Part shown: in pieces, positions 5,946-61,100 of the stretch
Layout of the letters: every line of letters begins with the position of its first letter
How positions within the stretch are numbered: the stretch's first letter is position 1
From: a bacterium BMS3Abin08
GTDB lineage: Bacteria > Nitrospirota > Thermodesulfovibrionia > Thermodesulfovibrionales > JdFR-85
NCBI GenBank assembly: GCA_002897935.1
Contig: BDTA01000015.1
Location: 17,735-81,734 of the forward strand
Length of the DNA stretch: 64,000 bases
Direction: 5' to 3'
The notes under the pieces: model-generated
The model's database searches: none
What the model was told of the DNA's origin: nothing
Seen by the model: only the letters and a program-made list of their open reading frames with translations
Program-made: the position numbers and the translations under genes

Positions 5946-6089
5946 AGAGTCTGTGTATAAATTGCCGTTTTTTATTTTTGTCATGTCCCGAAAGCGTTCG
6001 GGATAACCGGAACTTATTGAAAAGACTGGATTCCGGCCTAAGGACTGCCGGAATGACAGATAGAGAGACTGACTTTATACACAGACTCT
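5946..6089. repeat. MITE-like element with 16-bp terminal inverted repeats (AGAGTCTGTGTATAAA ... TTTATACACAGACTCT)
   Basis: 144 bp. Perfect TIRs. Two internal hairpin modules (TCCCGAAagcgTTCGGGA and ATTCCGGCctaaggactGCCGGAAT). A truncated copy abuts it at 5880-5943. Confidence 0.75.
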
Positions 6090-11585: not shown

Positions 11586-11729
11586 AGAGTCTGTGTATAA
11601 ACTGCGTTTTATATTTTTGTCATACCCGAAGTCTGTAGTCGGGTATCCAGAAGTTATTGAAAAGACTGGATTCCCGCCCAACTGACCGCGGGAATGACGG
11701 CTCTATTGTTGAGTTTATACACAGACACT
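11586..11729. repeat. MITE-like element (same family as 5946-6089)
   Basis: AGAGTCTGTGTATAAA ... TTTATACACAGACACT, 144 bp. Internal hairpins ATACCCGAagtctgtagTCGGGTAT and ATTCCCGCccaactgaccGCGGGAAT. Confidence 0.75.
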
Positions 11730-13237: not shown

Positions 13238-13383
13238 AGAGTCTGTGTATAAAGTTGCGGTCTCTCAATCTGTCATTCCGGCAGTTCTTAAGCCGGAATC
13301 TATTCGTTTCAATAAGTTCCGGAGATCCCGAATGCTTTCGGGACATGACAAAAATAAAAAACGGCAATTTATACACAGACTAT
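13238..13383. repeat. MITE-like element (inverted orientation relative to 5946-6089)
   Basis: AGAGTCTGTGTATAAA ... TTTATACACAGACTAT. The interior is the reverse complement of the 5946 copy. Confidence 0.75.
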
Positions 13384-27722: not shown

Positions 27723-27856
27723 AGTGTCTGTGTATAAACTGCAGTTATTTGTCATTCCCGCAAGCGAAGCGAGTCGGGAATCCTTCTTAAAGACAGATTC
27801 CGGACAAGCCGGAATGACAAAAAAACGACACCTGTTCGACTTTATACACGGACACT
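27723..27856. repeat. MITE-like element
   Basis: AGTGTCTGTGTATAAA ... TTTATACACGGACACT, with the ATTCCCG...CGGGAAT and ATTCCGGACAAGCCGGAAT hairpin modules. Confidence 0.75.
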
Positions 27857-27864
27857 AACCTTAA

Positions 27865-27998
27865 TTTTCTGTGTATAAACTGCCATTTTTTATTTTTGTC
27901 ATACCCGAAGTCTGTAGTCGGGTATCCGGAAGTTACTGAAAAGACTGGATTCCCGCCCAACAGACCACGGGAATGACGGCTCTATTGTTGACTTTATA
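27865..27998. repeat. MITE-like element (tandem to the previous one)
   Basis: TTTTCTGTGTATAAA ... TTTATACACAGGCTCT. The interior is near-identical to 11586-11729. Confidence 0.75.
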
Positions 27999-28065
27999 CA
28001 CAGGCTCTAATTAAACAAATTTTCCTTGCATTGGCAAGCCCCGACCTTTGGTAGGAGAGTTCTGC

Positions 28066-28122: not shown

Positions 28123-28548
28123 GTGTCTGTGGAGAGATACAGGGAAATAGGACTTAAACTCACACCGCAAAGGCTGGCCATCCTCAGGTTTCTGGACGGC
28201 AACAAGAGCCATCCCTCGGCTGAGGATATTTATAAAGAGGTTAGAAAGACCTTTCCCACAATGTCATTTGCAACGGTCTATAACACACTCGATGCGCTGA
28301 GGAAGCGGGGGGGGGTCCTTGAGCTGACCATCGACCCCGGGAGAAGAAGGTACGACCCCAATACCGAACATCACCATCATCTGATATGCCTAAGATGCAA
28401 GAGGATCGTGGATATCCACACAGATTACCATCTCGATGTCCCGGTTGAACAGAAAGGCTCATTCAGGGTGCTGAATAACCATATTGAGTTCTATGGACTC
28501 TGCGAAGAGTGTCAAAAAAAGGGAGGTGATATCGATGGCTGTTTTTAA
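28123..28548 (+). CDS. Fur-family transcriptional regulator, probable PerR
   Basis: LKLTPQRLAILRFL winged helix. HHHHLICLRCKRIVD plus CEEC structural Zn site. Heads a peroxide/oxygen-defence cluster. The GTG at 28129 is better spaced from the AAGGAG RBS than the track's start at 28123. Confidence 0.85.
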   Translation: MSVERYREIGLKLTPQRLAILRFLDGNKSHPSAEDIYKEVRKTFPTMSFATVYNTLDALRKRGGVLELTIDPGRRRYDPNTEHHHHLICLRCKRIVDIHTDYHLDVPVEQKGSFRVLNNHIEFYGLCEECQKKGGDIDGCF

Positions 28549-32286: not shown

Positions 32287-32427
32287 AGTGTCTGTGTATA
32301 AAGTCGAACAATTGTCGTTTTTCCGTCATTCCGGCTTGTCCGGAATCGTTCTTTAAGAAGGATTCCCGTCCCGAATGCGTTCGGGATTGCGGGAATGACA
32401 AATAACCGTAGTTTATACACAGACTCT
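32287..32427. repeat. MITE-like element
   Basis: AGTGTCTGTGTATAAA ... TTTATACACAGACTCT. Its translation produces the spurious ORF at 32184-32420. Confidence 0.75.
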
Positions 32428-32488
32428 AAGTAATCAACAATACCGGAATCCTTGATTCCCTGATTTGATTTTTTCCAGGAGGTGTTTT

Positions 32489-33106
32489 ATGTTTAAAGAG
32501 GAAGTATGTTGCAGTTTAGGCGTTGGACAGCAGGTCCCGGATTTTGAGCTGGATACCTATGATCCAAGCAAGGGTAACTTTGGAAAGGTCTCTCTGAAAA
32601 AACTTAAAAAGGCCGGTAAATGGACGATCCTTTTCTTCTATCCGGCAGACTTCACCTTTGTGTGAGCTACGGAATTCGCTGCTCTGGCAGAGCAGTACAG
32701 CCGTTTCAAGAAAATGGGTGCCGAGGTTATTACGGTAAGCACTGACACACAGTTTGTCCATCTTGCATGGCATAGAGATGAAAAAATGCTTGAAAAAGTC
32801 AGATACCCCATGGGCGCTGACCCAACCGGTGACGTCTCGATGCTCTTCGGTGTATACGATGAAAACACTGGGCTTGACCTTAGAGGTACGTTTATTATCA
32901 ACCCGCAGGGCACCATTCTCAATTCAGAGGTTAACTTCTACAATATGGGCAGAAACATTGACGAGCTGATGAGAAAGTTCAAGGCAAACCTTCACCTCTC
33001 AAAACATGAAAACGAGGGCTGTCCTGCCAAATGGAAAGAAGAGGGGGATAAGACACTCAAGCCCTCGCCAGACCTTGTTGGCAGGGTCTATGAGGCATTG
33101 CAATGA
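32489..33106 (+). CDS. 2-Cys peroxiredoxin (AhpC/Prx1 type) with selenocysteine (TGA at 32663-32665) at the peroxidatic position
   Basis: Track ORFs 32465-32665 and 32714-33106 are in the same frame and separated only by a TGA. The junction reads FFYPADFTFV-TGA-ATEFAAL, where Prx has FYPxDFTFVCPTE. The resolving-Cys context EGCPAKW is retained. RBS GGAGG precedes the ATG at 32489. Confidence 0.8.
32678..32696 (+). promoter_or_regulatory. bacterial SECIS-like hairpin
   Basis: GCTGCTC-TGGCA-GAGCAGT gives a 7-bp stem (one G-U pair) and a 5-nt loop containing GG. The loop begins 22 nt after the U of the UGA. Confidence 0.55.
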
Positions 33107-33203
33107 TCTGAGCGGGCTTCGGGTTTCAGGCGGATATAGATCCCATATTAATAAAGACTTATATTTACGGCCGGACTCAGCGGTCTGTTCCACGGGCTTT
33201 ATT

Positions 33204-33953
33204 ATGAACGAAGAGATTGGAAAGAGATTTCAGCAGGAGACAAAGTACGACCCTGATGAACTAAAGGAGCGTTCTCTTAAGGGGCTCAGACAACCTGAAA
33301 GGGTCAGGGCATTTGAGGCCCCACTTGGCATCACTCAACTCCCTGACCCTGATATAGAGAAACTCAAAAAACCTCTCTGGGAACTCCTTTTAAAGAGGAG
33401 GTCAAGGAGGATTTTTAACGAAAACGAGCCATTATCCATTAACCTGCTCTCCGTTGTGTTATGGGCAACCCAGGGAATCACAGACCGGTACGGTGATACC
33501 TTTTTCAGAACAGCCCCCTCCGCAGGGGCACTTTTCCCTGTTGAGACGTACCTGATGATAAGAGAAGTGGATGGTATCGAACATGGGCTCTACCACTTCG
33601 ATGCAAGGGCCTTTCAACTTGAACTCTTAAGTAGAGGTGACTACTCAAAAGATCTGGCACTGGCAGCCCTGAGTCAGGCAATGGTAACCAAGGCCCAGGT
33701 TACATTTTTGTGGACAGCGGTAGTTGGACGCTCGAAATGGAAGTACCGTCAGAGGGCTTACAGATATATTTATCTGGAGGCCGGCCATATAGCCGAAAAT
33801 CTCTACCTTGCCTGTGAGGCTCTCGGGCTCGGCACCTGTGCGATAGGTGCTTTTTTCGATGACTGGGTAAACAGCATTATCGGTGTTGACGGGATTGAAG
33901 AGACGATAATTTATATGGCAACCGTGGGATCGCCAAAGAAAAAGCAGGATTAA
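33204..33953 (+). CDS. SagB/ThcOx-type nitroreductase-family dehydrogenase
   Basis: FQQETKY start motif, RRSRR, PSAGALFP, and the C-terminal YLEAGH...LGLGTCAIGAF pattern. The ATG at 33204 avoids overlap with the peroxiredoxin. Confidence 0.75.
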   Translation: MNEEIGKRFQQETKYDPDELKERSLKGLRQPERVRAFEAPLGITQLPDPDIEKLKKPLWELLLKRRSRRIFNENEPLSINLLSVVLWATQGITDRYGDTFFRTAPSAGALFPVETYLMIREVDGIEHGLYHFDARAFQLELLSRGDYSKDLALAALSQAMVTKAQVTFLWTAVVGRSKWKYRQRAYRYIYLEAGHIAENLYLACEALGLGTCAIGAFFDDWVNSIIGVDGIEETIIYMATVGSPKKKQD

Positions 33954-35664: not shown

Positions 35665-35802
35665 CGAGTCTGTGTATAAATGTCTTTTTGTCGTCATGCC
35701 CCGAAAGCGTTCAGGGCATCCGTAAAGCAGTGAAAAGACTGGATTCCGGCTTAAGGACTGCCGGAATGACAGATAGAAGAATTGACTTTATACACAGACA
35801 CT
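35665..35802. repeat. MITE-like element
   Basis: CGAGTCTGTGTATAAA ... TTTATACACAGACACT. Confidence 0.75.
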
Positions 35803-35806
35803 AATT

Positions 35807-35949
35807 ACATTCCGTGTATAAAGTCGAACAGTTGTCGTTTTTCCGTCATTCCGGCTTGTCCTGAATCGTTCTTTAAGAAGGATTCACGACTCCCGAATGC
35901 GTTCGGGATTGAGGGAATGACAAATAACCGTAATTTATACACGAACTCT
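35807..35949. repeat. MITE-like element (tandem)
   Basis: TCCGTGTATAAA ... TTTATACACGAACTCT. The interior is near-identical to 32287-32427. Confidence 0.7.
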
Positions 35950-36038
35950 AATTACATTTCTTGCCTTCATTCCCGCACAAAGGTCGGGGCCTTCGGCAAG
36001 GTGCATTGTAAATTCGATATTCTTTGGAGGGCCATAAA

Positions 36039-36386: not shown

Positions 36387-37388
36387 ATGAAACAGATACT
36401 CCTTGCCCACGGTGGAGGCGGCGAAGAAACAAGGGAACTGATAGAGGGTATATTCAGAAGATATCTTTCCAATGCCTTCCTTGACAGGTTTGAAGACTCT
36501 GCTATCCTTGATATCCCCGATGGAGGTATTGCCTTTACCACCGACTCATTCACGGTATCACCCCTGTTTTTCAACGGCGGCAATATAGGCAAGCTCGCGG
36601 TTGCAGGAACCGTAAACGATCTCTCGGTAATGGGCGCACGCCCCCTGTTCCTCTCTGCAGGCTTCATTATCGAGGAGGGGTTTCTCATCGAAGACCTTGA
36701 AAGAATCCTTCAGGACATGCGTGAAGAAACTGAAAAAACAGGCGTTATGGTTGTCACGGGGGATACCAAAATCATGCCCCGCGGACAGCTCAACGGTGTG
36801 ATAATAAACACCTCCGGTATAGGGGAACTCCTGTACCGGGGACTTTCCGCATCCAATCTGAATATTGAAGACGGAATAATCGTTACAGGCACGGTGGGTG
36901 ATCATGGGGCGTGTATCCTTGCTGAACGTGAAGGGATGGGTTTTGAACTTGACATTTCAAGCGATTGTGCCTCTCTCTGGGAGATTTTAAAGGAGGTGCT
37001 TGATTCAGGTGCCGAAATACATGCGATGCGCGACCCCACCCGCGGAGGTCTTGCCGCGGTACTGAACGAATGGGCAACTGCATCAGGCACGGAGATCGAG
37101 ATCCTTGAGCATGAAATACCTGTAGAGGGTTCTGTCCGGGGCATATGCGAACTCCTCGGCATGGAGACAACACATCTCGCTTCCGAGGGACGCGCGGTCA
37201 TTGCAGTAAAAAATGGAGACGAAGGTACAGTCCTTGATTCACTCAGGAACCACCCCCTTGGAAAGGGAGCACGGCTGATCGGGTCCGTCACCGACAGGGG
37301 GAAAAAACGTGTAATACTCCGGAGCCCTTACAATACAAGACGGATAATGGAGCCCCCATCAGGGGAGCTTCTTCCAAGGATTTGCTGA
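36387..37388 (+). CDS. hypE: hydrogenase maturation protein HypE
   Basis: AIR-synthase-like fold motifs (DSFTVSPLFF, GTVNDLSVMGA, DPTRGGLA) and the C-terminal PRIC. Confidence 0.95.
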   Translation: MKQILLAHGGGGEETRELIEGIFRRYLSNAFLDRFEDSAILDIPDGGIAFTTDSFTVSPLFFNGGNIGKLAVAGTVNDLSVMGARPLFLSAGFIIEEGFLIEDLERILQDMREETEKTGVMVVTGDTKIMPRGQLNGVIINTSGIGELLYRGLSASNLNIEDGIIVTGTVGDHGACILAEREGMGFELDISSDCASLWEILKEVLDSGAEIHAMRDPTRGGLAAVLNEWATASGTEIEILEHEIPVEGSVRGICELLGMETTHLASEGRAVIAVKNGDEGTVLDSLRNHPLGKGARLIGSVTDRGKKRVILRSPYNTRRIMEPPSGELLPRIC

Positions 37389-60845: not shown

Positions 60846-61100
60846 AGAGTCTGTGTATAAATTACGGTTGTTAGTCATTCCCGCAATCCCGAATGCATTC
60901 GGGAGTCGGGAATCCTTTTTAAAGAACGATTCCGGACAAGCCGGAATGACAGAAAAACGACATCTACATGTATTTGTCATTCCCGCAAGTGAAGCGCGTC
61001 GGGAATCCAGTCTTTTCAATAAGTTCTGGATACCCGACTACAGACTTCGGGCATGACAAAAATAAAAAACGATAACTGTTCGACTTTATACACGGACTCT
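60846..61100. repeat. composite MITE-like element (two fused units)
   Basis: AGAGTCTGTGTATAAA ... TTTATACACGGACTCT, 255 bp, enclosing four hairpin modules. It generates the spurious ORFs 60853-61056 and 60964-61155. Confidence 0.75.

Follow-up and report, generated by a model that had tools for sequence, protein, structure and literature searches.

The peroxiredoxin locus considered here lies within a 64,000-nucleotide stretch of contig BDTA01000015.1 from the bacterium BMS3Abin08 (hereafter, the window) and carries an in-frame TGA at its peroxidatic position, which raises the question of whether this codon ends a broken gene or is translated. Our analysis indicates that the locus is very probably a functional selenoprotein gene, predicted from its sequence to encode a typical 2-Cys peroxiredoxin (Prx) with selenocysteine (Sec) as the peroxidatic residue. 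The elements of the gene are the following:

32477-32482, forward strand: Shine-Dalgarno sequence AGGAGG, read from the sequence, 6 nt upstream of the ATG at 32489
32489-33106, forward strand: Sec-Prx gene, a complete 205-codon AhpC/Prx1-type 2-Cys peroxiredoxin with its own TGA stop at 33104-33106
32663-32665, forward strand: in-frame UGA, codon 59, at the peroxidatic position (TGA in 66/80 and TGY in 14/80 of the closest metagenomic relatives)
32678-32696, forward strand: predicted SECIS core hairpin GCUGCUC-UGGCA-GAGCAGU, with the stem at 32678-32684/32690-32696 and the loop UGGCA at 32685-32689
33020-33022, forward strand: TGT codon of the resolving Cys (Cys178, within EGCPAKW), which in Salmonella AhpC has its counterpart in the Cys of GEVCPAKW

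An earlier, sequence-only reading of this DNA had described two ORFs, at 32465-32665 and 32714-33106, parted by a single TGA. Re-reading of the sequence confirmed that they share a frame and that the TGA at 32663-32665 is the sole stop between them. Independent gene calls back the start at ATG 32489, as they yield a 58-residue product from the same ATG. Read through, the junction is FFYPADFTFV-U-ATEFAAL, with U as codon 59, and we regard the structure of the gene and the position of the UGA as established.

With Cys standing in for U, the protein matches the Pfam AhpC-TSA family (PF00578) over residues 12-143, scoring 130 bits where the cutoff is 26 (6e-38). Among solved structures, Salmonella AhpC chains score best, with 1yf1_A at the top (6e-48), and codon 59 aligns onto the C of FFYPADFTFVCPTE in Salmonella AhpC. 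This agrees, as do the TGY codons of 14 of the 80 closest relatives, with the initial proposal that the stop stands where the peroxidatic Cys would be. The motif FTFVCATE is present in 116 of the 130 database homologues and places a Cys at the window UGA position, so that U is indeed aligned to the peroxidatic Cys of Cys-containing orthologues. The catalytic set is complete (Pro52, Thr56, Sec59, Arg132 and Cys178), and the resolving-Cys context EGCPAKW had rightly been called intact; under a strict pattern, the xxCPAKW context was found in 55 of the 130 clade homologues. The protein has the attributes of a typical 2-Cys Prx, namely a PxxxTxxC-type peroxidatic site, a conserved Arg and a resolving Cys near the C-terminus, and the 1-cysPrx_C C-terminal domain is borderline in it (20.7 versus 21.1).

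Ahead of the Prx core, the window gene encodes a pair of cysteines, Cys7-Cys8 (32507-32512; E-[IV]-C-C-[GS]-L). The pair recurs in the closest database homologues (P0001-P0012), the window gene being the one Sec form inspected for it, and more distant members of the clade, L078 and L127 among them, lack it.

The two ORFs could also be taken at face value, as a truly split gene in which a 58-residue peptide and a 130-residue protein are separately initiated, the latter at the in-frame ATG at 32714. This ATG, however, is preceded by no Shine-Dalgarno sequence and its Met is unconserved, relatives having ATC, TTG, CTT or GCG instead. Moreover, the 48 nt that separate the ORFs are conserved as coding sequence, and neither half would contain a complete thioredoxin fold or the full active site. 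We consider two independent products extremely unlikely.

Gene callers treat the locus in different ways. The sequence-only reading had anticipated that they would split the gene, and the ENA and Logan gene calls do so, giving products of 58 and 130 residues, the shorter of which is present in NCBI nr. The expectation does not extend to assembly GCA_011041165.1, which lists one 205-residue product over the TGA (L003, 9409-10026) and whose annotation appears to treat Sec-Prx as a read-through product. The TGA itself is identical across 13 contigs from about ten sequencing runs and several studies (ERZ1742235-8, ERZ909564-6, SRR7787887, SRR7787010, ERR14856886 and GCA_011041165.1), which establishes its reproducibility and contradicts a misread TGC or TGT. 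A sequencing or assembly error has on its side only the prior that single-base errors happen; against it stand the same base in independently assembled contigs and the presence of TGA in 66 diverged relatives. We hold such an error to be vanishingly improbable.

Elsewhere in the window TGA behaves as an ordinary stop. It terminates 18 of the 52 confident genes, the Sec-Prx gene included, so TGA has not been reassigned genome-wide and the recoding is local. A scan of all in-frame TGAs in the window that are flanked by long open frames returned only the Prx site as credible. In 5 of the 130 database homologues the active site reads FTFVWATE. For one of these, P0010 (identical to L237 186-803), the 'W' corresponds to a TGA followed by the same hairpin, and it is a Sec codon mistranslated by a caller using a code in which TGA specifies Trp.

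We then consider how far the interrupted gene is conserved. A genome scan with the pattern DFTFV-TGA-xTE, using one genome per species, found at least 120 genome loci in many phyla, and in nearly all of the loci listed a Prx frame stays open over about 140-155 codons past the TGA. Among the matches listed, the window clade is represented by 10 loci that are 66-76% identical to the window protein and carry a hairpin almost letter-identical to that of the window; they are labelled Nitrospirota, Thermodesulfovibrionia, Planctomycetota, Rokubacteria, Acidobacteriota/Terriglobia and Krumholzibacteria. The locus L124, labelled Desulfovibrio and 52% identical, has GCUGAUU-UGGCA-AAUCAGC, with two compensatory pair changes. 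In a metagenome comparison of the 80 closest loci, which are 68-99% identical to the window protein, the peroxidatic codon is TGA in 66 and TGC or TGT in 14, and 64 of the 66 TGA relatives hold 146-159 open codons downstream of the TGA.

These data bear on the possibility that a Cys codon (TGY) mutated to TGA in a gene that is now decaying. The 58- and 130-residue calls of Prodigal-type programs fit such a pseudogene, as do a few degraded relatives: L149 meets a TAG 9 codons past the TGA, and the frame is shortened in L188 and in L083. These three may be decaying copies or, in long-read assemblies, sequencing errors. Against decay, TGA is the majority state of the clade, with the frame still open in nearly every case, and the sequence after the stop is under purifying selection. 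Relative to the window gene, post-TGA dN/dS values are 0.003/0.084 for L131, 0.006/0.164 for L132 and 0.091/2.16 for L133, and the median over comparisons with an estimable dS is 0.049; the ratio is about 0.04-0.05. The half of the gene after the TGA is also better conserved than the part before it. These two observations are incompatible with a pseudogene, and purifying selection past the TGA is established. A further argument against decay is that conservation of a hairpin at synonymous sites occurs only alongside TGA (see below). The gene is therefore very unlikely to be a pseudogene, and the downstream decay that would have marked one, as the sequence-only reading had noted, is absent from nearly all of its TGA-bearing relatives.

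The hairpin is where it had been placed at the outset, a 7-bp stem-loop at 32678-32696. It begins 15 nt after the U of the UGA, which leaves a 12-nt spacer, and an eighth pair, U32685-A32689, is possible and would leave a GGC triloop. Folding that starts at the UGA puts the hairpin at the core of the minimum free energy (MFE) structure (-17.4 kcal/mol, z = -1.98). Extending the folded segment upstream changes the fold, so that the hairpin is no longer the MFE structure, and the z-score (-0.68) is then not significant. The single-sequence fold is thus only suggestive, and the case for the hairpin comes from comparative data.

Third-position entropy was compared between two sets of distinct sequences from one clade, 69 Sec forms and 13 Cys forms, both encoding A-A-L-A-E-Q, with the following results:

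Sec forms, hairpin third positions +18, +21, +24, +27, +30 and +33: 0.38, 0, 0, 0.26, 0 and 0 bits
Cys forms, hairpin third positions +18, +21, +24, +27, +30 and +33: 1.74, 1.95, 1.31, 1.92, 0.78 and 1.15 bits
Sec and Cys forms, flanking third positions +6, +9, +12, +15, +36, +39 and +42: 0.9-1.9 bits

Across 36 distinct Sec-form sequences, 97.6% of the cells of the 7-bp stem are paired; shifting the 3' partner by 1-3 columns as a control lowers this to 20-58%, and none of 500 shuffles matched the observed pairing and covariation values. Compensatory changes occur at three stem pairs (U-A to C-G, C-G to A-U and C-G to U-A), with variants that include GCCGCUC...GAGCGG and GCUGAUU...AAUCAGC. One of the changes alters the protein (CAG to CGG, Gln to Arg) yet preserves the pair. 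Over the 25-nt segment, the MFE averages -11.75 kcal/mol for Sec forms and -4.98 kcal/mol for Cys forms. The hairpin is under selection at the RNA level, and this selection, which is established by the comparison, is restricted to UGA-bearing genes.

An extended SECIS was considered and rejected: predicted lower stems in relatives are mostly unpaired or fixed by coding and show no covariation, which leaves the upper hairpin alone supported. Rfam, which has no usable bacterial SECIS model, returned nothing at gathering thresholds over the whole window; over 32640-32740, where there was likewise no bacterial SECIS model to score, it gave chance-level matches alone (E = 2-6). Two Cys forms with TGC, L164 and L167, have kept the hairpin almost whole (GCTGCTCTGGCAGAGCGG) and appear to have reverted from Sec only recently.

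Taken with the conservation data, the anatomy of the gene suggests how the UGA would be recoded. A ribosome at UGA59 would meet the hairpin 12 nt downstream as a bacterial SECIS, which would recruit SelB-GTP-Sec-tRNA(Sec), and Sec would be inserted in place of termination. After Sec59, translation would run for 146 more codons to the true stop. By analogy with the family, Sec59 in a PxxxTxxU pocket with Arg132 would attack peroxide and form a selenenic acid, which Cys178 of the partner subunit would resolve into a selenenylsulfide; the enzyme would probably be recycled by a reductant of the thioredoxin or glutaredoxin type. The dependence on SelB, the incorporation of selenium and the reductant are inferred.

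The Sec machinery was sought around the gene. No selA, selB, selD or tRNA-Sec gene was found in the window or its reachable flanks (roughly 85 kb in all); this includes a contig walk of about 8 kb upstream and about 6 kb downstream of the window, which brought up no sel genes. The window is without any tRNA gene, its other genes have no link to selenium, and an Aragorn search for tRNA-Sec over 214 loci (about 1.34 Mb) found none. The query for SelD was the SelD adjoining the Cys-form relative L194, and approximate E. coli SelD and SelB sequences served as probes. SelD is common in Nitrospirota/Thermodesulfovibrionales, the lineages that hold the nearest homologues.

Three SelD candidates were set aside. 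The AIRS-fold gene at 36387-37388 of the window is HypE instead (434 bits versus 34 bits for SelD), and P0221 and P0136 are both from other samples than the source organism. In two unrelated genomes, a gene of the Sec machinery adjoins a peroxiredoxin gene: SelD lies directly beside a Cys-form Prx in L194 (3-914), and SelB directly follows a PrxU-type Sec-Prx in L014 (598-2547), a Burkholderiales MAG.

The absence of Sec machinery from roughly 85 kb around the gene would fit a read-through of the UGA that uses no selenium and places Trp or Cys at position 59. This could proceed by near-cognate tRNA(Trp) or tRNA(Cys), or by a Sec pathway inserting Cys, with the hairpin acting as a read-through stimulator only. 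Some pipelines do report W at this position (the FTFVWATE homologues, of which the one checked is a TGA), but those calls reflect a wrong genetic code, TGA being a normal stop in the window. Trp at the peroxidatic site would abolish catalysis, yet the gene is strongly constrained; the position of the hairpin and its G-containing apical loop fit the geometry of a SelB-type SECIS, for which E. coli fdhF serves as reference; and the frequency of SelD in the Nitrospirota lineages of the nearest homologues also speaks against this route. We judge selenium-free read-through to be improbable and favour Sec at position 59.

The proposal that Sec-containing peroxiredoxins form a known class is borne out by the literature, in which Prx is an established TxxU selenoprotein family (PMC1794560, PMC1088965, PMC13188914). 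Knowledge of Sec-peroxiredoxins goes back to PrxU from Eubacterium acidaminophilum (Sohling 2001, cited through PMC13188914), and in 2006 Prx was tabulated with 12 members and five Cys-to-Sec events (PMC1794560). The class has been known for more than 20 years and is abundant in bacteria, and the window gene adds another member to it. It has in common with this family the AhpC/TSA fold, Sec at the peroxidatic position of PxxxTxxU and a SECIS located within the ORF just past the UGA. Cys homologues of the family are widespread, its members are mostly from anaerobes and Sec and Cys interconvert frequently, as in the window clade. There is no difference in kind; the window gene has an uncultured lineage as its source, and its subclade is not singled out in the Kryukov/Zhang/Gladyshev surveys (PMC1794560, PMC1088965, PMC13188914).

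PrxU itself shares with the window gene a UGA at the same codon of DFTFV-U-xTE and a hairpin that starts at about nt +16 and overlaps the xAAV/LAx codons. The window protein, however, scores 196 bits against the cutoff of 270 for the PrxU equivalog model (NF040737 peroxi_PrxU), with clade relatives at 168-188 and the PrxU-type controls L119, L041, L090 and L021 at 381-397. Most PrxU-type proteins are only 40-47% identical to it, and three of the four scanned have no resolving Cys (E[VA]TPSGW), whereas the window clade retains EGCPAKW. The SECIS elements of the PrxU group are short, with a GGUC/AGUU-type loop and a variable, covarying stem (GCAGC...GCUGC, UCGGC...GCCGA, UCUGC...GCAGA), in contrast to the nearly invariant GCUGCUC-UGGCA-GAGCAG of the window clade. 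On these sequence comparisons, the window gene is no orthologue of PrxU and falls in a separate 2-Cys clade with a SECIS of another type.

AhpC (1yf1, 1yep, 4ma9) and the window protein share the contexts of the active site and of the resolving Cys as well as the C-terminal region. They differ in that the window protein has Sec for Cys and an N-terminal extension with the Cys-Cys pair, and it reaches 209.7 bits against a cutoff of 272 for the AhpC equivalog (TIGR03137), so that it belongs to neither the PrxU nor the AhpC equivalog. AhpC is usually partnered with AhpF, and no AhpF-like gene was found in the Sec-Prx neighbourhood.

The SECIS of E. coli fdhF consists minimally of an upper stem-loop about 11 nt past the UGA, with a G-containing apical loop that is bound by SelB. 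The hairpin of the window gene is likewise within the ORF, with a 12-nt spacer, a short stem, a small loop and Gs at about +24/+25 from the U. It differs from the fdhF element in that no bulged U is evident and the loop reads UGGCA, or GGC if taken as a triloop, where fdhF has GGUC.

A rough neighbour-joining tree with parsimony counts at least 12 Sec/Cys changes. The Sec forms are scattered over this tree and share the hairpin, which suggests a single origin of Sec with repeated Sec-to-Cys reversions, or a horizontal spread of Sec. We regard it as evenly balanced whether the clade constitutes a distinct Sec-Prx subfamily outside the curated models, in which a Sec majority and one SECIS over several phyla reflect a single origin or horizontal spread followed by reversions to Cys. 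If this is true, the Sec-to-Cys direction in the window clade runs counter to the Cys-to-Sec events listed for this family in 2006 (PMC1794560), and protein databases show chiefly the Cys minority because callers split Sec forms or translate TGA as Trp. What is mildly new, and modestly so, is a clade distinct from PrxU that keeps the resolving Cys, is mostly Sec and carries a near-invariant SECIS over several phyla.

The Sec-Prx gene lies in a compact oxygen and peroxide defence island at about 28.1-36.3 kb, of a kind typical for strict anaerobes, which is followed by hypE-hypA-hypF-hypB. For HypF, the closest homologues that carry a taxon name are no more than 56-61% identical and come from both Aquificota and Nitrospirota. 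At the head of the island stands the following gene:

28123-28548, forward strand: PerR-like Fur-family regulator (NCBIfam PerR, 4e-40, under the curated cutoff)

The order thereafter is rubrerythrin, flavodiiron protein, rubredoxin, neelaredoxin and Prx, and then a SagB-type nitroreductase, desulforedoxin, a rubrerythrin, FMN reductase and glutaredoxin. PerR-like regulation of the island may be inferred. The glutaredoxin-like gene, at about 36.0-36.3 kb, is 3 kb downstream of Sec-Prx. The longest ORF of the SagB-type nitroreductase (33006-33953) overlaps the 3' end of Sec-Prx by 100 nt; most callers begin it at ATG 33204 (249 aa), which we judge to be the more plausible start.

An intergenic element that resembles a MITE or REP, is about 140-155 nt long and has the terminal inverted repeats TAATTAGTGTCTGTGTATAAA...TTTATACACAGACACTAATTA recurs in the window in at least nine copies, all between genes, and one copy is directly upstream of the Sec-Prx gene. 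The core of the repeat has 18 matches against 0.03 expected. The copies are as follows:

5947-6088: MITE- or REP-like copy
11587-11728: MITE- or REP-like copy
13239-13382: MITE- or REP-like copy
27724-27855: MITE- or REP-like copy
27865-28007: MITE- or REP-like copy
32288-32426: MITE- or REP-like copy
35666-35801: MITE- or REP-like copy
35802-35954: MITE- or REP-like copy
60847-61099: MITE- or REP-like copy

Farther along, a corrinoid methyltransferase cluster and the genes after it lie at 52.9-60.4 kb and just past the 3' end of the window (L232). The cluster comprises two URO-D/MtaA-like genes, MtrH, a B12-binding protein, a ferredoxin and a RACo reductive activator; after these come a CCG/Fe-S protein, a PALP enzyme, a TPP enzyme and TauE. 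Together, these genes suggest methyl-group and organosulfonate metabolism.

The window gene leaves general knowledge of selenoproteins unchanged. For annotation, it should be described as one gene, not as two fragments or a pseudogene, with U as residue 59, and the same applies to dozens of relatives: Sec forms make up four out of five of the 80 closest loci, and the databases hold them as 58- and 130-residue pieces or with a false Trp. A single clade in which Sec and Cys genes can be paired, and in which the hairpin is either present or decayed, offers a clean natural experiment for studying SECIS constraint and the exchange between Sec and Cys. As for the organism, an uncultured anaerobe whose oxygen-defence island holds a predicted selenium-dependent peroxidase would be expected to need selenium and to possess Sec machinery.
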